Source: Escherichia phage vB_VIPECOOM01. Taken from it: DNA of 64,000 nucleotides. The DNA lies in sequence record OQ721909. One strand, given 5' to 3'. A program made the position numbers and the translations under genes. Of this stretch, positions 12,338-37,042 are shown in pieces; position 1 is the stretch's first letter; every line of letters starts with the position of its first letter. The notes under the pieces were generated by a model that worked only from the letters and a program-made list of their open reading frames with translations, did no database searches and had not been told where the DNA came from.

Positions 12338-12580
12338 TTATTCCTTAATTCCTAGTACTTGTTTAAAAGTCTCGTCGTAATCAAGACTTTGACCTGTTTG
12401 TTCTTTATGTTTGTATATAATATCACTTACTTCTGATAGCATATTTTTATATGAACGAGTTAAAGCAGATTTAAGCACGCTATATCTATCAGGAAATTTA
12501 CCATGTTCATTATAATACGCTATTGCTAATTCACGGACTGCCTTTTCAGCAGTCTCCATATATTCTTTACGCTTTGTCAT
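12338..12580 (-). CDS. hypothetical protein (nrdC.1-like)
   Basis: 80 aa ORF. Confidence 0.55.
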
Positions 12581-12884
12581 TTTCTTCTCGGTTAAATCGG
12601 TGTTTGCAATGACGGCATTTATAACGAAGATTACTAGTCTGCCAATGGACTAATTGAACCTGTTCAGTACCACATTTTGGGCAGTTCGGAACATTCTTAG
12701 AAGCCCTTTCGCGGCGTTCAACCATAACCATAATGGCATCCCAGGCTGGAGGTTTAAAGTCTAGATCGTCACAACCATGAATCTTTCCACGCATTTCTAG
12801 ATCGTCTTCTTCACCTGCCATAATAATTTTAATTAGACTGGAATTACTTGAAGCTGCAATGTCTTCTAATAGACGCTTTTTCAT
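12567..12884 (-). CDS. hypothetical zinc-ribbon protein
   Basis: 105 aa; CPKC...CRHC four-cysteine ribbon. Confidence 0.55.
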
Positions 12885-13810
12885 TTCAATACCTCAATAG
12901 CATTACGTAAACCATTTGCTTTTGCATTAAGAGATTTTAACAATTTGGTGTGTTCGGCAATCTGGGCTTCAACTTCAATCAAACGAGCATTGAGATATTC
13001 ACGTTCTTCGCTCAGGTTATCAACCTTTTCTACTTTAGGCTCTTTTACAACTGTCTTATATGTATTAGGGTTCTTCAGTTTAATTAGAATGCGTGAACTG
13101 TATAACATTGAACCATTATTTTCGATTTCGTCATACATTTCTACTACGTCCATGATTTTTAACATCATGCGGAGTTTATAAGATAACGAACGAATAGTTT
13201 TGTTGTGCTTATTAATTTCTCTAGAGTTCATGGTACCGAGATTACGTGAGTAGTAATAAGGAACCTGGATATCAATTGATAATGATGCGTTACCATTACC
13301 GGTTGGTTTGAATACTGCAGTAACCCAATCCTTAACATGAACTGTATTTGTACGGTCATCGCCCGCGGTAAATAGTTTACGAGCATGCTTAAAAAGCATA
13401 TTCACTTGGTCATTGAATTGACAAGCGAATTTATCAGCAAATTTAGTTTCAGGAATGGTAGATAACCAATCAGCCAAATGGGTCTTTTTAACATCGTTAA
13501 CAATAGTAAATTCAACCAAATCAGTTATAGATGTCTCAGATTTAATAAAGCTCGGCTTCATAAAGTTTTTAATGTTATCGCGAGCTACAGTAGAAGATAA
13601 CATACGAGAACGTTTAAACCATTGAAGCAAATTGCCCAACGAATGAGAATAAGCGTTCTGTGTATCTTTACAGATATGATTTTCCTGGCCAACATACTGA
13701 AGGAAATCACGAAGAATATTATTGATTACTGCTCTGTGTCCGATCTGATAATTACGGTGTTTAGTAATAAGACTGTCAAAATAATCAATATAATGTTTAC
13801 GAGTTTTCAT
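12881..13810 (-). CDS. hypothetical protein with C-terminal coiled coil (paralog family member)
   Basis: 309 aa; heptad-rich C-terminus; shared internal motifs with next two ORFs. Confidence 0.6.
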   Translation of the reverse strand: MKTRKHYIDYFDSLITKHRNYQIGHRAVINNILRDFLQYVGQENHICKDTQNAYSHSLGNLLQWFKRSRMLSSTVARDNIKNFMKPSFIKSETSITDLVEFTIVNDVKKTHLADWLSTIPETKFADKFACQFNDQVNMLFKHARKLFTAGDDRTNTVHVKDWVTAVFKPTGNGNASLSIDIQVPYYYSRNLGTMNSREINKHNKTIRSLSYKLRMMLKIMDVVEMYDEIENNGSMLYSSRILIKLKNPNTYKTVVKEPKVEKVDNLSEEREYLNARLIEVEAQIAEHTKLLKSLNAKANGLRNAIEVLK

Positions 13811-13862
13811 GTTCTTCTCACTTGGTTAATGATTTATACTCCGAGCCATCCTTGGCTTTAAA

Positions 13863-14864
13863 TTACTTAATTAACTGTAAAGCTTGTTCAAGACGATCCA
13901 GGCGATTAACAGATTCTTCCCAAATCCTTTTAGCCTGCTCATATTCTTTCTGCGCTTTATTAGAAATTTCTAGAACTTCTTTATAAGCCTTTTCTAGTGC
14001 AATAACTTCTGGACGAATTTCTACAGGTTCAGGCGAATCATCAAGATTATCCATTAGTTCCTCAAGTGTAATTTCTTCTTTAGGAGTATTCACAATTTCA
14101 TCACATTTTTGTTGGTAAATTTCTTTATCAGTCGGTGAGTACGCACATTTCACTTCACGAAGACTAACTACAATTTTATATCCTTCCCAACCGCATATAT
14201 TCTTAAAAGGATACGTATGAATATTTTCTACTGTTTCCATACAAAGTAATGCGGTTTCTAATTGACGAGTTATAGTGCTAGCAATTGAGAAAAATTTATT
14301 AATATTCCTTTGGTTAGTTTCTGGTGTAAAAAATCCATAATTCACAAAAATAGATACTTTATTTTTATCAAGTTCATATTCTTTTACGATAATCATATCA
14401 GAAGCCAAAGGATGAATTTGACGATAATCGCCATAACATAATTTAGAAGCTGATTTTAAAATTTGCTTTTTGAAAAGCCTGAAATTACTAATCCAACGAC
14501 GAGTAAAAATATTCTCAGGGTCTTCTTTATTATTAAGATGATAAGAATTAACATCACCGAACCAATTATATCCTACTACATCTTTGGTTCGTTTAATTTC
14601 TTTCCCAAAATTACCAAGAATATCTCGATTAACCAAATATGAAAGAAGACGAGACTCTTTAAAGGTTTTCTTGATAACATCTTTATCTACACGACTAGAA
14701 ATTTTACGAATTTCATGAATAAATTTAACAGAAGAAACAAGACTTGCGTCAACACTATTGAGCCATTGATTGATAATAGAAATAACGCTATTTTGGCCAA
14801 ACAATGGTATAGCTTTATCATCAATAACGCTATTGAATGATTTGATATATTCGTTACGAGTCAT
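13863..14864 (-). CDS. hypothetical protein with C-terminal coiled coil (paralog family member)
   Basis: ORF-track ORF trimmed to Met with GAGGAG RBS (MTRNEY...) because an early promoter lies inside the longer ORF. Confidence 0.6.
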   Translation of the reverse strand: MTRNEYIKSFNSVIDDKAIPLFGQNSVISIINQWLNSVDASLVSSVKFIHEIRKISSRVDKDVIKKTFKESRLLSYLVNRDILGNFGKEIKRTKDVVGYNWFGDVNSYHLNNKEDPENIFTRRWISNFRLFKKQILKSASKLCYGDYRQIHPLASDMIIVKEYELDKNKVSIFVNYGFFTPETNQRNINKFFSIASTITRQLETALLCMETVENIHTYPFKNICGWEGYKIVVSLREVKCAYSPTDKEIYQQKCDEIVNTPKEEITLEELMDNLDDSPEPVEIRPEVIALEKAYKEVLEISNKAQKEYEQAKRIWEESVNRLDRLEQALQLIK

Positions 14865-14892
14865 ATTAATCTCCTCAGTAGAAAGTAAGAAC

Positions 14893-14922
14893 ATTATACC
14901 ACATCCTTGTGGCAAAGTAAAC
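14893..14922 (-). promoter_or_regulatory. early promoter
   Basis: GTTTAC -35 and GGTATAAT -10 on minus strand. Confidence 0.55.
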
Positions 14923-15950
14923 TAGTTTAGTGCATTTAGTGCATTGTTCAGTTTAGAACGTTGCTTCGTGAGATTTTTGACTTTTTCTTGAGCTTTTTCT
15001 AGCATCTTTTCAGCTTCTAACACTTCATTAGTTGCTTTAACGAGTTCATCATCTACTGCCTTGATAGACTTCTCAATCGCATCTGCATGCCATTTTTCAA
15101 CAGGTTTAAGACTCGGATTTTCAACAGGAAGAAAATTCACTTTATTGAATTTCCATGCATCCTTATTACCTGAACTATACATCCAAAATTTAGGATCGTT
15201 TGATGAGTAATTGGATAAATTTAAATTTAAGTTATCTTGCACTTCCTGCTTTTTCTCTTGCGTGACTTCGTCCTTTCTCAAAAAATCGTATTTAAATGAA
15301 ACGATCATATCAAGTTCATATGTTGTTGTGTCTAATTTAAATCGTTCGAAATGTTGTGAAATCTTAGACTGAACAGCGGCAACAACATCCATATACTTAA
15401 ATGCTTCTGTCAACTGCGATTTAAGGCATTCGCAAATTGAAAGAGAATTTTTTGTATTAGGTTTAAAGCTAATTCGTGCAGTTCTATTATTTTCTTTTAA
15501 TGGTCTTACTTCCATCTGAAGAGTATAACCATCAAATTTCAGGTTCTTTAAGTTAATATCAGAACCTTTCAATCGACTCGCAGTTGATAAAATTTGCTTT
15601 AATTGTCTACGGAACAGAGCAATAAATCTCCATTCAATACGATAATGATTTGGATTGAAAAATCCAGATGATAAATCGACCTTACTTTGACCAACGCCTT
15701 GAACAAATAAAGGATTTTTATAATCAATAGTTTTACAGAAATCGGTGAGTTGCTCACGAGCAGTCATTTGTGTAATATATCCCGCTTTACTAAAATTACG
15801 CACCCATTCACTGCTATTCGTATACTTAAAGTGATGAATAACACGATTAACTTTATCAGGGTCTAAATTATTTTCACACAAAAATGTCATAACATCACGA
15901 GTATAACTGGCATTACGAACCATATCTTCAATTTGAGAACGAGTTTTCAT
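14922..15950 (-). CDS. hypothetical protein with C-terminal coiled coil (paralog family member)
   Basis: 342 aa; MKTR N-terminus like 12881..13810. Confidence 0.6.
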   Translation of the reverse strand: MKTRSQIEDMVRNASYTRDVMTFLCENNLDPDKVNRVIHHFKYTNSSEWVRNFSKAGYITQMTAREQLTDFCKTIDYKNPLFVQGVGQSKVDLSSGFFNPNHYRIEWRFIALFRRQLKQILSTASRLKGSDINLKNLKFDGYTLQMEVRPLKENNRTARISFKPNTKNSLSICECLKSQLTEAFKYMDVVAAVQSKISQHFERFKLDTTTYELDMIVSFKYDFLRKDEVTQEKKQEVQDNLNLNLSNYSSNDPKFWMYSSGNKDAWKFNKVNFLPVENPSLKPVEKWHADAIEKSIKAVDDELVKATNEVLEAEKMLEKAQEKVKNLTKQRSKLNNALNALN

Positions 15951-15958
15951 AGTGTTCC

Positions 15959-16885
15959 TTAAGATTTAAGTAAATCAACAATTTTAATTAACTTTTCACG
16001 CTCAGATTTAGCTTTACTACTCAATCCAGATAGTCTGAAAATTTCATCATCATATTGTTGAATAGAAATATTCAGCTCTTCAATCTGTTTATTAAAATAA
16101 TCAATTTGTTCAGAATGTTTTTCGTTACTACGAACTGGTACAGGTTTCGTAGGCAATTTAGTTGAACTGGATTCATTCGGGCGATAAATTAAAATACAAC
16201 TTGAACCAATAGGGCATTTTGCACCAGATGAATATTCTAATGTTCCAGCTTCTTTTAAAACTTCAAAAGCTAAACAGAGATGATGCCCCATATTAACATA
16301 ATCTGTAGAGTGAGCTCTGATGTAATAATCATCTCCACGAATACTAAATTTAAAGCATTTAAGGTCTTCTGTATTATTGGTCTTAAAAATCATTTGTTTA
16401 TCTAGACCTTTAGCTAATCGAGCACCCAATGCTAATAATCGTCGTTGATTTTCCCACAAATCCGCAATCATTTGGTCGAATGATAATTTCGGCATTAGTC
16501 GACCATAAAGGTCATATCCTTTATTATAATTACGAAGGATTTCACTCGCATTAATGCGAGACAATGCTCCAATTTTATTAAGGGCTTTCATAATGCGATT
16601 AGATAAACTCATTCCAGACCCGTTTGTTCGCTGTAAATGTTTTTCTAATCCAAATCCAATATCAACTTTAAACTTATCTAAAATTTCTGCATGAACATCT
16701 TTGTCGATAACATTCAAATCCAAAGTTGGGTTAAATCTATGAAAAAATTTATCTGGCTCTCCACGGCGAAGTACAGTCCATTCATTCATCATTTTTTTAT
16801 TAACTAATGATTTAATTACTGCATTGACATTATTAATTACTACTGACATATTTTCCTCACTCAATTTCAATTTTACTAAATACAC
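15959..16885 (-). CDS. hypothetical protein with C-terminal coiled coil
   Basis: 308 aa ORF; start may be the internal MSVVINN. Confidence 0.55.
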   Translation of the reverse strand: MYLVKLKLSEENMSVVINNVNAVIKSLVNKKMMNEWTVLRRGEPDKFFHRFNPTLDLNVIDKDVHAEILDKFKVDIGFGLEKHLQRTNGSGMSLSNRIMKALNKIGALSRINASEILRNYNKGYDLYGRLMPKLSFDQMIADLWENQRRLLALGARLAKGLDKQMIFKTNNTEDLKCFKFSIRGDDYYIRAHSTDYVNMGHHLCLAFEVLKEAGTLEYSSGAKCPIGSSCILIYRPNESSSTKLPTKPVPVRSNEKHSEQIDYFNKQIEELNISIQQYDDEIFRLSGLSSKAKSEREKLIKIVDLLKS

Positions 16886-17294: not shown

Positions 17295-17320
17295 TTATAC
17301 CATCCTTGGTATAAAGCGGT
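17295..17320 (-). promoter_or_regulatory. candidate middle promoter (MotA-box-like)
   Basis: GGTATAATGG -10 with CGCTTTA about -30 on minus strand. Confidence 0.4.
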
Positions 17321-17847
17321 TATGCGAGTACCGTCTTTAACCGTTCTTCAAACTTCCGAAGAGTATTTTGGCGTTCAGCTCTTTGCTTTTTGTAAGTTTC
17401 AATACGCTCTGAAATGAGAGAGTATCGTTCATTTACTGATTCTTTCATAAAATCAGGAATTTCACGAGAAGCTTTAATCTCGTCAAATTTATCAATAACA
17501 GCTTGCTCTTCAGCAATTAAGTTATCATACATCAAAATATCTTTCTTGATGAACTCAATATCTTCTTGAGTTACACGAGATAATTTAGATGCTTTATCCT
17601 TTTTGTACTGTTCGTTAGTATCACGAGACCAGTGTAATGTACGATTTTTATTCGTATTTTTGTAAATTTCGACAATACCAATCTCATCAATAATAACGAT
17701 CCAATTCCAACGGGATTTGTAAATTTGTCCTCCATCAACAGTGATTTCACCTCCGATTGAGATGTCGTTAAAGAACTTACTCTGTGCTTCAGATTTAAAT
17801 TTACCATCGTTGTAATTTACCAAGTTGAAAATATCTTTAGCGTTCAT
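17320..17847 (-). CDS. hypothetical protein
   Basis: 175 aa ORF downstream of early promoter. Confidence 0.55.
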   Translation of the reverse strand: MNAKDIFNLVNYNDGKFKSEAQSKFFNDISIGGEITVDGGQIYKSRWNWIVIIDEIGIVEIYKNTNKNRTLHWSRDTNEQYKKDKASKLSRVTQEDIEFIKKDILMYDNLIAEEQAVIDKFDEIKASREIPDFMKESVNERYSLISERIETYKKQRAERQNTLRKFEERLKTVLA

Positions 17848-17871: not shown

Positions 17872-17905
17872 GGTAATAATACCACAGAGGAACAGTCTTG
17901 TAAAC
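17872..17905 (-). promoter_or_regulatory. early promoter
   Basis: GTTTAC -35 and TGGTATTATTACC -10 on minus strand. Confidence 0.6.
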
Positions 17906-18292: not shown

Positions 18293-19012
18293 TTAGGATT
18301 CTTCTAAATGTCTTTTCTGAAAAGTTGATACCATACTACGATACGGTTCATTTGGATATCCGTGTTTTATAGCTTCCTTTGTAAATTTTCTCCATCCATA
18401 TTTAGTTTCTTTCCAAAGCTCGAATAATTCATCTTCATATTGCCATATAGTTAAATGAGAACGCTTTGCAGCTTTAATTCCATTAATATGCTTTTCTTTT
18501 ACTACAGGATTGCTTAGTTTCTTTTTAATAATATTACTAACTTTTCTAACAAAAGCTGGGTCCTTATATCGTTGTGAAGTTTTTATTGAAGTGTTTAATT
18601 TAGCTTCCGGCGTGGATGTGACCTCTTTCATCTTTTTCTTCATATGCTGTATATGATTAGGATTTTTCCATAAATTTATAGAATGCTTTTTGCATTTTAT
18701 CCTAGTTTCATCTGCAACCTTTCCTCCTTCACCCCCGTATGACAGGTTAACACAGTTTTTTCCATATTTCAATTTACCTGCCATGATATATAATATTTCA
18801 GCTTGTACCATTTTATCATAATTATCAAAAACTTCTAAAACCGTTTTTGATAATATGTGGTCATTTGACACTTTTACACGTTCTATATAATTTCCACTAC
18901 CAACATACGAATCATTGATGTTATTAGTTATATGTCGACCATAATAGTATTTCTTAATACCTGTCTTTAAATTTAATATTTCAGTTTTATAGATAGTAAA
19001 ATATTTTTTCAT
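18293..19012 (-). CDS. putative mobile (GIY-YIG-like / MobD-like) endonuclease
   Basis: 239 aa; degenerate N-terminal IY...YYG...YVGSG; basic lysine-rich C-terminal repeats like homing-endonuclease DNA-binding modules. Confidence 0.4.
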   Translation of the reverse strand: MKKYFTIYKTEILNLKTGIKKYYYGRHITNNINDSYVGSGNYIERVKVSNDHILSKTVLEVFDNYDKMVQAEILYIMAGKLKYGKNCVNLSYGGEGGKVADETRIKCKKHSINLWKNPNHIQHMKKKMKEVTSTPEAKLNTSIKTSQRYKDPAFVRKVSNIIKKKLSNPVVKEKHINGIKAAKRSHLTIWQYEDELFELWKETKYGWRKFTKEAIKHGYPNEPYRSMVSTFQKRHLEES

Positions 19013-19977
19013 TTTAATAATACCGTTTCAGCAATTTCTTCCCAACCGTTTTTGTCGGTCATAATAAAGTCAGCAAGATAAAGAGCAGTACGCAGTGAAA
19101 CATTGCGTAAACGATTAACATTAACTTTCATCCATGATAATGCTTTATAAGTTTCTTCATCAGAAAGACCGCGCTTTTGCATCATGTCAGTTGAAAGAAT
19201 AACATCTTCAACCCTGACCATAATTTCTTCATTAGTGTGAACACCCAAATCCAAATAAACTGAGCGGGACACTAATGCTTGTAAGTGTGGAGCAAGTTTA
19301 GTACCACGGTCTAATTCGCGGTCAATGTCAACGTTTGTGATAAAAACAATCGTTCCTTTAAATTCAAACTCACGCTCAATGCCTTTTTCTTCTAAGTAAG
19401 AAGACGCAGTGCTCCAGCAGACTTTACGGGTCTCTCCGGTGTCCAGAGCGGCTTTTAGAAGATTAAGAATATCCATATCAGAGAAAACATCCACATCATC
19501 AATCAAAAGGACAGAATTCTCTTCACGATTATTCCAAAGCTGCTCATAAAGACCAATACCAGAGATTTTACCATTAATGCTTTTATATTCAATGTATCCA
19601 ATATCATTTGCTTTATTTAAAGCTTTATCTAAAGAATACGTTTTACCAATACCTGCTGCGCCAGAGATAATTAATGAACGAATATTTCCATTAATAATAC
19701 CGTTCGTCATCATTCCCATAACATTAAATCTTTTATTAATGCGGGTTTTCATATCTTCATACGATTCTTTAACTTCTTCAACTTTTACACCATCATATGA
19801 AATATCTGATTTGTAAACCCAAACACCGCGACGTTTACCGTCAATTTCAACAAAAACTTTACCATCTCCTTGTGCATCTACCGGAGCATTATCTGGGAAC
19901 CATTCGCCTAAGAGCTCAAAAGTTCCAGAGATTTCTTTACCGAAGTAGATACCCTTATTGATAGTTACAGTTTTCAT
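19009..19977 (-). CDS. AAA-type ATPase (nrdC.10-like)
   Basis: Walker A GAAGIGKT and Walker B VLLIDDVD; trimmed to Met with GGAG RBS (MKTVTINKG) because early promoter lies inside the longer ORF. Confidence 0.6.
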   Translation of the reverse strand: MKTVTINKGIYFGKEISGTFELLGEWFPDNAPVDAQGDGKVFVEIDGKRRGVWVYKSDISYDGVKVEEVKESYEDMKTRINKRFNVMGMMTNGIINGNIRSLIISGAAGIGKTYSLDKALNKANDIGYIEYKSINGKISGIGLYEQLWNNREENSVLLIDDVDVFSDMDILNLLKAALDTGETRKVCWSTASSYLEEKGIEREFEFKGTIVFITNVDIDRELDRGTKLAPHLQALVSRSVYLDLGVHTNEEIMVRVEDVILSTDMMQKRGLSDEETYKALSWMKVNVNRLRNVSLRTALYLADFIMTDKNGWEEIAETVLLK

Positions 19978-20009
19978 TTTATTCTCCAAATCCGTATCAG
20001 TTGATAGTT

Positions 20010-20060
20010 GTATAGTACCATAAAGCTTTATGCTTGTAAACTGTTTTGTGAAAAAATTTT
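20010..20060 (-). promoter_or_regulatory. early promoter
   Basis: UP element, GTTTAC -35, TGGTACTATAC -10 on minus strand. Confidence 0.6.
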
Positions 20061-20065
20061 GAAAT

Positions 20066-20090
20066 AAAAAGGGAGCCCGAAGGCTCCCTA
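20066..20090 (-). terminator. rho-independent terminator
   Basis: GGGAGCC-TTCG-GGCTCCC hairpin followed by TTTTT on minus strand. Confidence 0.7.
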
Positions 20091-21104
20091 TCATTTATAA
20101 TAACTTCGGTGGTTTTCAAGATAAACCTTCTCAAGGAAGTCATCCCAGAAACCCATGTCTACTTTTTGCTGCATACCGTTCTTAGAAGCTTCAATTGATG
20201 CTGCTTCTACTTGATCGACCACATCTTCCAAAAACTCTTGAACAGTTTTAAATGGATGCTTGCCCAGCTTCACGTCGAGAATAAATGGGGCATCTTGTAG
20301 TGGATAAACCAAGTCACCAGTTTTGTAAATTTCCAATAGTTGGAGTCCACCACGACAAGCATGACTCAGAGCTTTCCAGTCAATGCCCTCATTCGCTTCA
20401 GCCTTACGAGCACGTTCACCATATTCAGCATCAAGTTTATTCAGAGATTGCTTAAGCTCAATAAGAGAAAGTGTAGTCTGATATTTACGACCCAACACAG
20501 TATAGAACGTTTGCGGTCCCGTTTTCTCATGATTATGGAACACCCATTCACAGAATTCATTTTCTGGAAGACGATGCTTAATATCTTCAACTTTAGTGCG
20601 ACGTTGCTTAATGGAACCGTCTTCTTGATAATCAACCCACTGATCGGGGATTTGATTAACTACTTTCAATACATCACGCAATGCGGCCAAACGAGAACCC
20701 TTAACACCATATTTAGAAGCTTGCTTGCGGACATATCCTAAATAGGATTTCATGTTAGTTGTATAAAATCGTGAACGATTGTCTTGAATAAACTTCCATA
20801 CATCAGGCAAATCAGATTTAACTACTAGTTCAGGTGGAGTGTGAAGCATATCCAATGCTACAGTTTCACCATCTGCTGCTAATTTAAAGAAATACTTAAG
20901 ACTGTATAGTTCATGGTCAATATCATCTTTAGTGTTTTTAGATGATGTGTTGTTAGTGTTTTTACTCATATGCTCTTTAACATTTCCGATAAGAATATCG
21001 CGAGCAGGAGGAACAAAGATTTCTTTAAAATCTACATCAGATTCTGGAGTAGAAGTTCCATAAAGATGACTACCAAAATAGCTTTTCATTACTGTTTTCA
21101 TCAT
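20091..21104 (-). CDS. Pol-beta-superfamily nucleotidyltransferase-like protein (nrdC.11-like)
   Basis: 337 aa; N-terminal GS-x11-DVD motif; followed by terminator hairpin. Confidence 0.55.
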   Translation of the reverse strand: MMKTVMKSYFGSHLYGTSTPESDVDFKEIFVPPARDILIGNVKEHMSKNTNNTSSKNTKDDIDHELYSLKYFFKLAADGETVALDMLHTPPELVVKSDLPDVWKFIQDNRSRFYTTNMKSYLGYVRKQASKYGVKGSRLAALRDVLKVVNQIPDQWVDYQEDGSIKQRRTKVEDIKHRLPENEFCEWVFHNHEKTGPQTFYTVLGRKYQTTLSLIELKQSLNKLDAEYGERARKAEANEGIDWKALSHACRGGLQLLEIYKTGDLVYPLQDAPFILDVKLGKHPFKTVQEFLEDVVDQVEAASIEASKNGMQQKVDMGFWDDFLEKVYLENHRSYYK

Positions 21105-30872: not shown

Positions 30873-31175
30873 TTATTTACCTTTAATTACTTTAGCTGCT
30901 TCGATAGCCGCTTGCTGAAGGTCATCCATAGACATACCGAATTTAGAAGCAAAGTTATCAATTTTCTTTTCGACAGCATTCAAAGGCTTGGCCTGTTTAC
31001 CTTCATTAGCGCCAGGAAGAGCGAGAATACGCTCTTTGTCAATATAAAGGCTTACAAGTTTCTTACGGTCTTTATCGGACAAATCATGAAATGAATGGGC
31101 CTTTTTATTTATAGCGGCTTCTAATTTACCTGCACTCACTCGCGCTTCAGCAATAAATTCTTGATATGTTTTCAT
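30873..31175 (-). CDS. ipII: Internal protein II (capsid-packaged)
   Basis: 100 aa; N-terminal MKTYQEFIAEA capsid-targeting leader. Confidence 0.85.
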   Translation of the reverse strand: MKTYQEFIAEARVSAGKLEAAINKKAHSFHDLSDKDRKKLVSLYIDKERILALPGANEGKQAKPLNAVEKKIDNFASKFGMSMDDLQQAAIEAAKVIKGK

Positions 31176-34751: not shown

Positions 34752-35345
34752 TTATTTCAGAGAATTAATATATTCCTGGACATCAGCAGAAGTGGTTTCA
34801 ACCCCAGAAATATTACCGTTAAAGGTTTCAACTCGAGCAAGAGTATCTTCAATATCAACCTTAGTTAGCGCTGCGATTTCAACTACATCATCGGCAGTAC
34901 TAATTCCAAGGGCATTTGCCGCACGAGTTTCACGAATATATTCCAATTTAACTGCAAGTTCTTGGCGAGCATCATCTAACTCAACTACTTTCTTGGCGAT
35001 TTCAATTCGCATTTCAGCATAACCGTCAGCTTTAGTAGTCAACTGCTCAGCTGTTCGACGATATAGCAAACCGAGTTTAGCGTGCATTGTTACATCTTGA
35101 CCTTCGGAAAGAAGTTTACGAATTTCACGCTCTTTTGATTCGGCCTGTCGATTCTTTTCGACAATAAGTTCACGAATACGTTTTTCTTCATTAATAGATT
35201 TAACAGAAGCAGTTTTTAGATCTTTAATTTTATCAAGCAGTTTTGCTGCCGCAGCAGTATACTGTTCTTCAACAGATAGATTTTTAGCCATAGCAGAACC
35301 AAGTTTAGTGCGAATAAACTCAACAATTTTCTTCAGTGTGTTCAT
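34752..35345 (-). CDS. hypothetical coiled-coil protein
   Basis: 197 aa, highly helical/charged. Confidence 0.55.
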
Positions 35346-36478: not shown

Positions 36479-37042
36479 TTATTTATCTAGTTTAGTTATT
36501 ATAGCTTCTGCGGCAGCTTTTAGCTTAGATGCGGTGTTAATACGATTTTTAATTTCAGTATACGCATCGCCAAGAACATCAAGGCTATCAGAATAAACAC
36601 TTACACTATTGCGTTCGCTATTTGAAATAGAACCTTTAGTTTTACGATCAAAATCGGTGTACACGTCTTGAAGATCACGGGCTGCCTTCTTTGCATCATC
36701 CAATGCGTCAAGAGCTTTATTCAAAGCATTAACGTATTTTTTAGTGTCGAACATATTCTTAGAAATTTTAACAGGTGCGCGTTCAGGAGTAGCTAATGCA
36801 GATTTAGGAACCTGAGCGCCAGATGCCAATTTCTTAGAAATTTTGAAAAACGCTTTATTGAATTTATTTTCTTGACTCATCGTAAAAGAACTATTATCGA
36901 TGTTGTACATTTCAATAGCTTTAGCTTTCCACTTAAGAAAATCGCCGCGGTCTTTTGGGTCCAAGTGGAAGAATACTTTAGTAAGATCTGCTTCAGATGG
37001 TAATTTTGCTGCTTCGGTTAAAAATTCGGCATAGGTTTTCAT
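36479..37042 (-). CDS. putative capsid-targeted internal protein (CTS leader, 187 aa)
   Basis: N-terminal MKTYAEFLTEA matches internal-protein leader with L-x-E cleavage site; flanked by terminator hairpins. Confidence 0.6.
   Translation of the reverse strand: MKTYAEFLTEAAKLPSEADLTKVFFHLDPKDRGDFLKWKAKAIEMYNIDNSSFTMSQENKFNKAFFKISKKLASGAQVPKSALATPERAPVKISKNMFDTKKYVNALNKALDALDDAKKAARDLQDVYTDFDRKTKGSISNSERNSVSVYSDSLDVLGDAYTEIKNRINTASKLKAAAEAIITKLDK

Follow-up and report, generated by a model that had tools for sequence, protein, structure and literature searches.

What do four consecutive phage genes do when each encodes a protein of roughly 300 residues that closes on a long, heptad-rich helix? 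The question is raised by a 64,000-nucleotide stretch of DNA from Escherichia phage vB_VIPECOOM01 (record OQ721909; "the window" below means this whole stretch), in which four such open reading frames (ORFs) lie side by side. An earlier interpretation made from the letters alone, which we call the sequence-only reading, saw in them a diverged family, expanded in tandem, whose members have an oligomerisation tail in common; it placed this family in a non-essential early region, found it typical of host-takeover or defence-related modules, and assigned no function. Here we identify the block as the T4-like nrdC.3-6 array. We think it probable, if well short of certain, that the array consists of diverged tandem paralogues whose products are oligomeric, stoichiometric and non-enzymatic binders of host immune proteins.

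The 4.8-kb stretch around the block shares 100% identity with Escherichia phage vB_VIPECOOM03 and 95-97% with many other Tequatrovirus genomes. The source of the window is a Tequatrovirus, and the four ORFs, all on the minus strand, are orthologues of T4 nrdC.3, nrdC.4, nrdC.5 and nrdC.6. The corresponding genes carry these four names in the annotation of ime09, and the gene order is the same in T4. On the same strand, nrdC.8 and nrdC.7 lie upstream of the block and nrdC.2, nrdC.1 and nrdC downstream. The four genes are as follows.

12881..13810, minus strand: nrdC.3 orthologue, 309 amino acids (aa); named nrdC.3 in ime09; phrog_1435, expectation value (E) 2e-114
13863..14864, minus strand: nrdC.4 orthologue, 333 aa; phrog_1435, E 2e-167; ribosome-binding site GAGGAG upstream of the ATG at 14864
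14922..15950, minus strand: nrdC.5 orthologue, 342 aa; Pfam DUF7235 (PF23882); anti-Dsr1 function published for the T4 copy
15959..16849, minus strand: nrdC.6 orthologue, 296 aa; phrog_2257, E 4e-152

Four consecutive ORFs had been called before, and three of their coordinate pairs are correct; the fourth had been started at a GTG at 16885, probably 12 codons too far upstream. The ATG at 16849 has a GAGG 7 nucleotides upstream, opens the family-conserved 'MS..IN' start and is the annotated start in ime09. Identity to the T4 proteins is 95.8% for nrdC.4, 95.6% for nrdC.5 (342 aa) and 98.5% for nrdC.6 over its first 259 residues; for nrdC.3 it is only 62%, because the central part of that gene is mosaic (see below). 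PF26897 is carried by all 98 homologues of nrdC.3/nrdC.4, membership being read from these homologues and the shared phrog_1435, and PF26899 by all 105 homologues of nrdC.6. The strand opposite the block holds no supported gene, only short ORFs of at most 79 aa, and Rfam gave no matches across the block region. Orthologues of all four genes are often labelled 'thioredoxin' or 'Mur ligase domain-containing protein' in GenBank and UniProt, and a T6 record has 'tail sheath stabilizer and completion protein'. Such labels were apparently carried over from the nrdC.x gene names, and nothing found here backs any of them; our assignment corrects what is a widespread mis-annotation of nrdC.3-6 orthologues in GenBank.

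These genes are already known as T4 ORFs, and one of them has a published anti-defence role. A T4 clone carrying deletions was unable to infect ECOR17, and disruption of dsr1 in ECOR17 restored infection (PMC9391042). Plasmid-borne dsr1 protected MG1655, and T4 nrdC.5 expressed alone then restored plaquing (PMC9391042, Srikant et al. 2022, eLife). The nrdC.5 of the window matches Pfam PF23882 (DUF7235) over its full length (residues 1-342, E 9.3e-127, 423 bits against a cut-off of 30) and sits between nrdC.6 and nrdC.4, as in T4. Judged by its sequence, it is orthologous to the T4 protein by which the host's SIR2-TPR immune protein Dsr1 is neutralised. The suggestion of a defence-related module is borne out to this extent, in that a T4 protein 95.6% identical to the window copy restores infection of Dsr1-carrying hosts (PMC9391042). 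Our literature search returned nothing on the mechanism of nrdC.5, its binding or its inhibition of Dsr1 beyond the 2022 paper.

Kinship and architecture of the four proteins

In pairwise BLASTP, nrdC.3 and nrdC.4 matched each other with E 4e-6, and the other five of the six pairs were non-significant. Profile-profile comparison with hhalign, whose E-values are pairwise only and not database-corrected, gave 98.2% for the nrdC.3 family against the nrdC.4 family; both fall in phrog_1435 and PF26897, and on these profiles the two are clear paralogues. The nrdC.5 (DUF7235) profile gave a probability of 48-54% over about 190-240 columns against the nrdC.4 family, and 91.4% (E 9e-7, residues 47-338) against an nrdC.3/4 profile to which two intermediates, P0260 and P0267, had been added. 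Both intermediates came from an exhaustive hidden Markov model (HMM) search with the nrdC.3/4 profile, and P0267, a 315-aa protein of Marfa-like Klebsiella phages, by itself gave 92.6% with nrdC.4 and 76.8% with nrdC.5. The hardest member to place was nrdC.6, at 39-43% against nrdC.3 and 9% against nrdC.4 in direct hhalign comparison. A profile of single-copy homologues from Kanagawavirus, Mosugukvirus and Marfavirus (group S) aligned with nrdC.6 at 92.9% (E 3.8e-7, residues 102-292), with nrdC.5 at 91.8% and with nrdC.4 at 81.6%. Reversed-profile controls score 11-18, and the real profile comparisons 36-100. The sequence-only reading had counted three of the four proteins as paralogous, and the paralogy of nrdC.3, nrdC.4 and nrdC.5 stands, but through the group S link at 92.9% nrdC.6 belongs with them too. 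The shared 'MKTR' start to which it drew attention is present, but it is a 12-nucleotide identity and carries little weight.

The motifs are collinear across the proteins. The first, h-h-S-R-x-x-h-A-R-x-x-L-x-N-F-x-K, lies at residues 64-84 of nrdC.3, 68-88 of nrdC.4, 57-73 of nrdC.5 and 94-110 of nrdC.6; the second, common to the members, reads F-x7-L-x3-A-x-[KR]-L-x2-G-x-D; the third is an L-x3-L-x2-M-x2-V-E helix, which the sequence-only reading had spotted; and the fourth is the tail itself, ending L-x-x-A-h-x-h-L-K. The AlphaFold models of nrdC.4 and nrdC.6 (confidence score pLDDT 82.6 and 75.7, respectively), read separately, agree in the order of their elements: N-terminal helices come first, a small sheet and three helices follow, then a long helix stands between a beta hairpin and a second hairpin, and a linker leads into the tail. 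Both models also match the same seven BFVD entries (A0A7G3KGN9, A0A0A0PZG4, A0A345AUV5, E5EPQ6, E5E4A2, A0A2S1GM98 and A0A449C4K0; E 1e-8 to 1e-3), which are uncharacterised 300-370-aa proteins of other Straboviridae, outside the families of the queries. Because the profile links run through intermediates to every member, and because the two predicted models share their element order and BFVD neighbours, we regard all four nrdC.3-6 proteins as one superfamily. The predicted architecture would be a divergent N-terminal helical region, a conserved alpha/beta core with three collinear motifs, a variable linker and a coiled coil of 6-8 heptads. Between the paralogues there are no DNA-level repeats beyond chance, and the duplication is therefore old. 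A modestly new element here is that three database families (PF26897, DUF7235 and PF26899) are joined as one tandemly expanded superfamily with a constant tail.

The exhaustive HMM search with the nrdC.3/4 profile retrieved only 11 representative clusters among 1.84 billion proteins, and membership of the family is limited to phages of the T4 group (Straboviridae and relatives). When viral contigs were scanned with nrdC.5, near-identical loci came up and no distant relatives, and HMM searches over all 90 ORFs of the window found no further family member. Several candidates for membership gave background hhalign scores only and were rejected: nrdC.8, the nrdC.10 of T4 and JS10, the neighbours of the Marfa and IME523 copies, and the tailed ORFs at 36479-37042, 34752-35345 and 30873-31175.

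Each protein had been described as ending in a heptad-like helix of about 40 residues, and register, periodicity, shuffling and two models all point to real heptad repeats. The tails are located as follows.

12884..13030, minus strand: nrdC.3 tail, residues 261-309; single heptad register; a/d positions 86% hydrophobic; period 3.45; beats 99.5% of shuffles
13866..14012, minus strand: nrdC.4 tail, residues 285-333; AlphaFold helix 285-332; a/d positions 86% hydrophobic; period 3.50
14925..15095, minus strand: nrdC.5 tail, residues 286-342; a/d positions 88% hydrophobic; period 3.50; nearly invariant in the family
15962..16126, minus strand: nrdC.6 tail, residues 242-296; AlphaFold helix 242-295; a/d positions 75% hydrophobic; period 3.45

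All four tails span 40-60 residues and run to the C-terminus in one unbroken register of 6-8 heptads, and they share both this register and the closing motif given above. Hydrophobic residues occupy 75-88% of the a/d positions versus 34-43% of the whole tail, and the period of hydrophobicity, 3.45-3.50, is the coiled-coil value, a simple amphipathic helix having 3.6. When a cruder sliding score was applied to shuffled sequences, the tails of nrdC.3, nrdC.5 and nrdC.6 were exceeded by at most 0.5% of shuffles, and that of nrdC.4 was marginal at 7%. Among the 73 ORFs of at least 100 aa in the window, the four proteins hold ranks 1, 3, 5 and 7 by C-terminal heptad score. AlphaFold renders the nrdC.4 and nrdC.6 tails as single helices of 48 and 54 residues. 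The shared oligomerisation tail proposed earlier is thus upheld as a predicted coiled coil common to all four proteins. Among distant orthologues the tail is the most conserved segment (60-80% identity), followed by the core (43-53%), and the N-terminal region is the least conserved (19-45% in nrdC.4, nrdC.5 and nrdC.6); for the nrdC.6 tail, conservation is 99% when close orthologues are compared and 66% for distant ones.

An Arg stands at a core 'a' position two heptads before the C-terminus, in the motif [QE]-R-x-K-L, in nrdC.5 (residue ~331) and nrdC.6 (residue ~284), as well as in most single-copy homologues (Marfa gp080, IME523 gp085) and JS10_0084; PM2 has Tyr there, and the Arg is absent from nrdC.3 and nrdC.4. 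Polar residues buried in a coiled-coil core often determine oligomer state or partner specificity. The T4 reference copy of nrdC.6 (L008:10067-10894) follows the window protein identically for 259 residues, then shifts frame and ends at 275 aa with no coiled-coil tail, and its gap to nrdC.5 is 70 nucleotides versus 8 in the window. Either this T4 copy is tail-less or defunct, or the T4 reference sequence is in error.

Expression, copy number and variation of the array

The sequence-only reading placed the block in an early region, and this is corroborated by the textbook T4 early promoter that immediately precedes nrdC.4 and by a second one upstream of nrdC.8. Three features beside the four genes are listed here.

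12567..12884, minus strand: nrdC.2, 105 aa, zinc-ribbon-like; not a family member; downstream partner with a 4-nucleotide overlap with nrdC.3
14893..14921, minus strand: T4-type early promoter, GTTTACTTTGCCACAAGGATGTGGTATAAT, between nrdC.5 and nrdC.4; predicted to drive nrdC.4, nrdC.3 and nrdC.2
17876..17904, minus strand: early-type promoter upstream of nrdC.8; 10/12 match, extended -10 TG

The site at 14893..14921 has the GTTTAC-N-TATAAT form (GTTTAC...TGGTATAAT) and scores 10/12 in a sigma-70 scan, with an extended -10 TG. Both sites are annotated as T4 early promoters in phage SA20RB. The one at 17876..17904 is the probable start of an nrdC.8-nrdC.7-nrdC.6-nrdC.5 transcript, which would extend as far as nrdC.5.

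In every genus examined (seven genera or lineages; loci L009-L011 and L014-L017), nrdC.2 is the invariant downstream partner of a family member. The stop and start codons of the two genes overlap by 4 nucleotides in the window, in JS10 (nrdC.4/nrdC.2), and in Marfa, IME523, PM2, PEi20, Kosakonia 305 and KLB31, which suggests that a family member and nrdC.2 form a conserved functional pair. The zinc-ribbon matches of nrdC.2 lie below Pfam thresholds. Inside nrdC.2, around 12766, there is also a short dip in DNA identity to T4.

Copy number across related phages is 1, 3 or 4, in agreement with the earlier description of a tandemly expanded, diverged family. Marfa, IME523, Kosakonia 305, PEi20, KLB31 and PM2 (genera including Marfavirus, Kanagawavirus and Mosugukvirus) have a single copy; in Dhakavirus JS10 an unannotated nrdC.5-type gene (hhalign 97.9%) accompanies nrdC.6 and nrdC.4, which makes three; and the number in T4-like phages is four. 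From this distribution, the ancestral state appears to be one copy translationally coupled to nrdC.2, later expanded to four in T4-like phages. Genes have also been lost. Pinarejo (L013:5001-5141) has lost nrdC.6 save its last 47 codons, ACG-C40 (L012:4805-5216) keeps only nrdC.6 intact, with nrdC.5 and nrdC.3 as remnants, and a 167-kb contig encodes P0056, an in-frame nrdC.5::nrdC.3 fusion without nrdC.4 and with its junction at KVN/QVN. Since T4-like phages occur in nature without one to three of the genes, the genes are individually dispensable, and the region is non-essential as had been supposed. By tblastn, nrdC.3 is present in 652 phage records, nrdC.4 in 552, nrdC.5 in 580 and nrdC.6 in 740.

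The ratio of nonsynonymous to synonymous substitution rates (dN/dS), computed against 7-9 related loci, is 0.24 for nrdC.3, 0.15 for nrdC.4, 0.16 for nrdC.5 and 0.08 for nrdC.6, with flanking genes at 0.00-0.09. This means purifying selection, somewhat relaxed for nrdC.3, nrdC.4 and nrdC.5. Across phage records, nrdC.3 falls into identity bands of 90-95%, 80-90% and 60-80% (304, 125 and 219 records, respectively), which suggests about three allele classes and an arms-race-like variation. The central ~650 bp of nrdC.3 (13010-13660) have 42-70% DNA identity to T4, and the 5' end, the tail and the flanking genes 90-100%. By this pattern the centre of the gene is a mosaic cassette, and the nrdC.3 of the window would be of another allele class than that of T4. 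The ancestral nrdC.2 coupling and the mosaic nrdC.3 alleles are additions of the present analysis.

Proposed role and rival explanations

Pfam, NCBIfam and PADLOC searches with the four proteins gave sub-threshold noise only, apart from nrdC.5 = DUF7235, with neither an enzyme nor a known domain among the results, and three family profiles searched against PDB sequences gave no match. The only PADLOC match was of the coiled-coil region of nrdC.4 to BrxC (E 0.01), with none for the other three. In nrdC.3, the tyrosine recombinase N-terminal SAM-like domain PF02899 stayed below threshold (E 0.07, 13.8 bits against a cut-off of 22.3), as did XerD-type NCBIfam models (15-18 bits against cut-offs of 279-330). 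That no enzyme family or fold was matched, together with the coiled coil, argues for binding and not catalysis. We propose that the coiled coil would make each protein a homo-oligomer and that, early in infection, its globular part would bind and block an immune protein of the host. The TPR sensor of Dsr1 has been reported to recognise the phage major capsid protein (2026 preprint, PMC12803255). A blocker made early would already be present when the late proteins arrive, among them the capsid protein that reportedly triggers Dsr1. As paralogues, nrdC.3, nrdC.4 and nrdC.6 would act likewise on other host targets, and because of their kinship with the anti-Dsr1 nrdC.5 they are good candidates for further anti-immunity factors, a candidacy that is modestly new as well.

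Several observations weigh against this proposal. Anti-defence activity is documented for one member only, nrdC.5, in T4 and by complementation. The link of nrdC.6 to the others consists of pairwise profile-profile scores and indirect structural evidence, and the Foldseek TM-scores (structural similarity) to the common neighbours are only 0.4-0.5. Gene-wide dN/dS is far below 1, with no direct signature of positive selection. The conservation of nrdC.6 (95-99% in 469 Tequatrovirus records) fits a housekeeping-like role as well as an arms race. Finally, the nrdC.6 of T4 itself is without a tail, and hence the tail may be dispensable or that copy defunct.

Four other explanations were considered, and none is favoured. 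The four proteins could be host-takeover or nucleic-acid-associated regulators that bind DNA or RNA, for example with the zinc-ribbon NrdC.2, the rescue by nrdC.5 on Dsr1 hosts being indirect. The coupling to nrdC.2 in every genus examined, its zinc-ribbon-like matches, the location of the block inside a cluster of nucleotide-metabolism genes and the strong conservation of nrdC.6 would all suit such a role, as would the weak, sub-threshold matches of nrdC.3 residues 30-86 to SAM-like tyrosine recombinase models (Pfam E 0.07, NCBIfam E 0.0013). Every one of these domain matches is, however, far under its curated cut-off; plasmid-borne nrdC.5 alone restored plaquing on dsr1+ cells (PMC9391042); and individual genes are lost in natural phages, with copy number ranging from 1 to 4. 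We consider regulators of this kind unlikely. The tails raise a different idea, namely that the four paralogues form one hetero-oligomeric complex and work as a single machine instead of as independent factors. Their common heptad register to the C-terminus, their similar end motif, their standing as the most conserved segments, and the adjacency and early co-expression of the genes speak for it, but most related genera have a single copy, natural T4-like phages miss one to three members, T4 nrdC.6 has lost its tail and nrdC.5 complements alone. In addition, the tails are roughly 20-30% identical between paralogues (by eye), which favours homotypic pairing, and we find a single complex quite improbable.

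A third idea is a decoy function: the globular core would mimic a virion protein, as a tail-terminator-like alpha/beta sandwich, and the early proteins would occupy host sensors of structural proteins. It fits with this idea that, according to the literature, structural proteins are what Dsr1 and DSR2 detect, the former the capsid and the latter the tail tube, yet RNA polymerase subunits and nitroreductases score equally in the structural comparison and Dsr1 is reported to sense the capsid protein and not a terminator, so that mimicry seems to us very improbable. There is also the prospect that the resemblance is superficial and due to chance, the four small proteins being unrelated to one another and alike only in a terminal amphipathic helix of a kind found in many phage proteins. 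BLASTP is non-significant for 5/6 pairs, Pfam and PHROGs place the four in three families, and unrelated ORFs of the window (nrdC.8 and 36479-37042) have heptad-like tails too. Against these stand profile-profile links of 82-98% with reversed controls at background, collinear motifs, and nrdC.4 and nrdC.6 models with a common element order and common neighbours; moreover, the same tests yield nothing for nrdC.8, nrdC.10 or the remaining tailed ORFs. Chance is already largely refuted and is scarcely credible.

A bolder version of the proposal can be put forward, which we hold only tentatively and rather doubt. The array may be a diversified battery of coiled-coil 'sensor blockers' on one scaffold, in which each paralogue or nrdC.3 allele class is tuned to a different receptor (Dsr1, Avs7-like or other TPR-sensor proteins), the multivalency of the tail gives high avidity, and the ancestral gene acted with NrdC.2. 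If true, such a battery would give phages their own equivalent of a multigene immune-evasion family. No phage has been studied better than T4, and still nrdC.3, nrdC.4 and nrdC.6, all of them early genes, are without an assigned function; the present results single these three out as counter-defence candidates for screens of host range, along with the homologues that phages of Klebsiella, Enterobacter, Pectobacterium and Acinetobacter have in single copy. They also distinguish the probable seats of specificity, which are the N-terminal region and, in nrdC.3, the mosaic core, from the core motifs and the coiled coil, which are constant; this distinction can guide mutagenesis and structural work on NrdC.5-Dsr1. 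For therapy with T4-like phages, the presence or absence of nrdC.3-6 may predict host range.

Neighbouring genes and known systems

Some ORFs near the array or elsewhere in the window share superficial features with it. The 175-aa nrdC.8 (17320-17847, minus strand) has a heptad-like C-terminal helix that ranks 6th of the 73 ORFs and no detectable relation to nrdC.3-6. Two further minus-strand ORFs, 36479-37042 and 30873-31175, start MKTY.EF..EA and end in an amphipathic helix, and hhalign finds them unrelated to nrdC.3-6; we take their start to resemble the capsid-targeting sequence of T4 internal proteins (IPIII/IPII). Farther upstream, between nrdC.9 and the nrdC.10 homologue, the minus-strand ORF 18293-19012 (239 aa) belongs to the PHROG homing-endonuclease family phrog_314 (E 1.5e-30) and looks like a mobile insertion, T4 and ime09 having no gene there. 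The nrdC.10 homologue (19009-20094, minus strand) is a 361-aa ORF whose PHROG match begins at residue 40; it has a P-loop and sub-threshold Pfam matches to AAA and 'novel STAND NTPase' families (E 7e-5 to 8e-3). In the single-copy phages, Marfa gp082 (L010:4272-4706) and IME523 gp087 (L011:4017-4439) are proteins of 140-144 aa, encoded upstream of the family member at a distance of a few genes. Of the two, Marfa gp082 closes with a similar helix ('...LFALK') and IME523 gp087 ends differently; hhalign gives no significant relation to the family.

The nearest known system is T4 NrdC.5 (DUF7235) itself, which the product of 14922-15950 resembles in identity (95.6%), length class, genome position and full-length DUF7235 match. 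Activity was shown for the T4 allele against ECOR17 Dsr1, and the window allele differs from it at about 15 residues. T4 NrdC.3/NrdC.4 (PF26897, phrog_1435) and NrdC.6 (PF26899, phrog_2257) are conserved hypothetical proteins of which the window ORFs are the orthologues; databases keep them separate from DUF7235.

A functional analogy, and that only, may be drawn between NrdC.5 and DSAD1, the SPbeta protein that according to the literature inhibits the SIR2 defence DSR2 stoichiometrically. Like DSAD1, NrdC.5 would be a phage protein that neutralises a SIR2-domain NADase defence protein by non-enzymatic means. The targets differ (DSR2 versus Dsr1 with its TPR sensor), and direct binding by NrdC.5 is putative. 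The 50 BFVD matches listed for the nrdC.4 and nrdC.6 models, many of them without a name, do not include DSAD1 by name, and no similarity test aimed at DSAD1 was made. NARP1, NARP2 and NARP3, which counter NAD+-depleting defences by NAD+ reconstitution, also rescue phage from DSR1; unlike the nrdC.3-6 proteins, they are recognisable enzymes. At the level of genome organisation, the array recalls the T4 dmd-tifA-adfA 'anti-TA island' (TA, toxin-antitoxin) and the internal proteins IPI/II/III, which are likewise early or accessory, dispensable on laboratory hosts, variable in copies or alleles, and lost when unselected. The genes of the anti-TA island are mutually unrelated, whereas the nrdC.3-6 members are paralogues with a common scaffold and a predicted oligomerisation tail.

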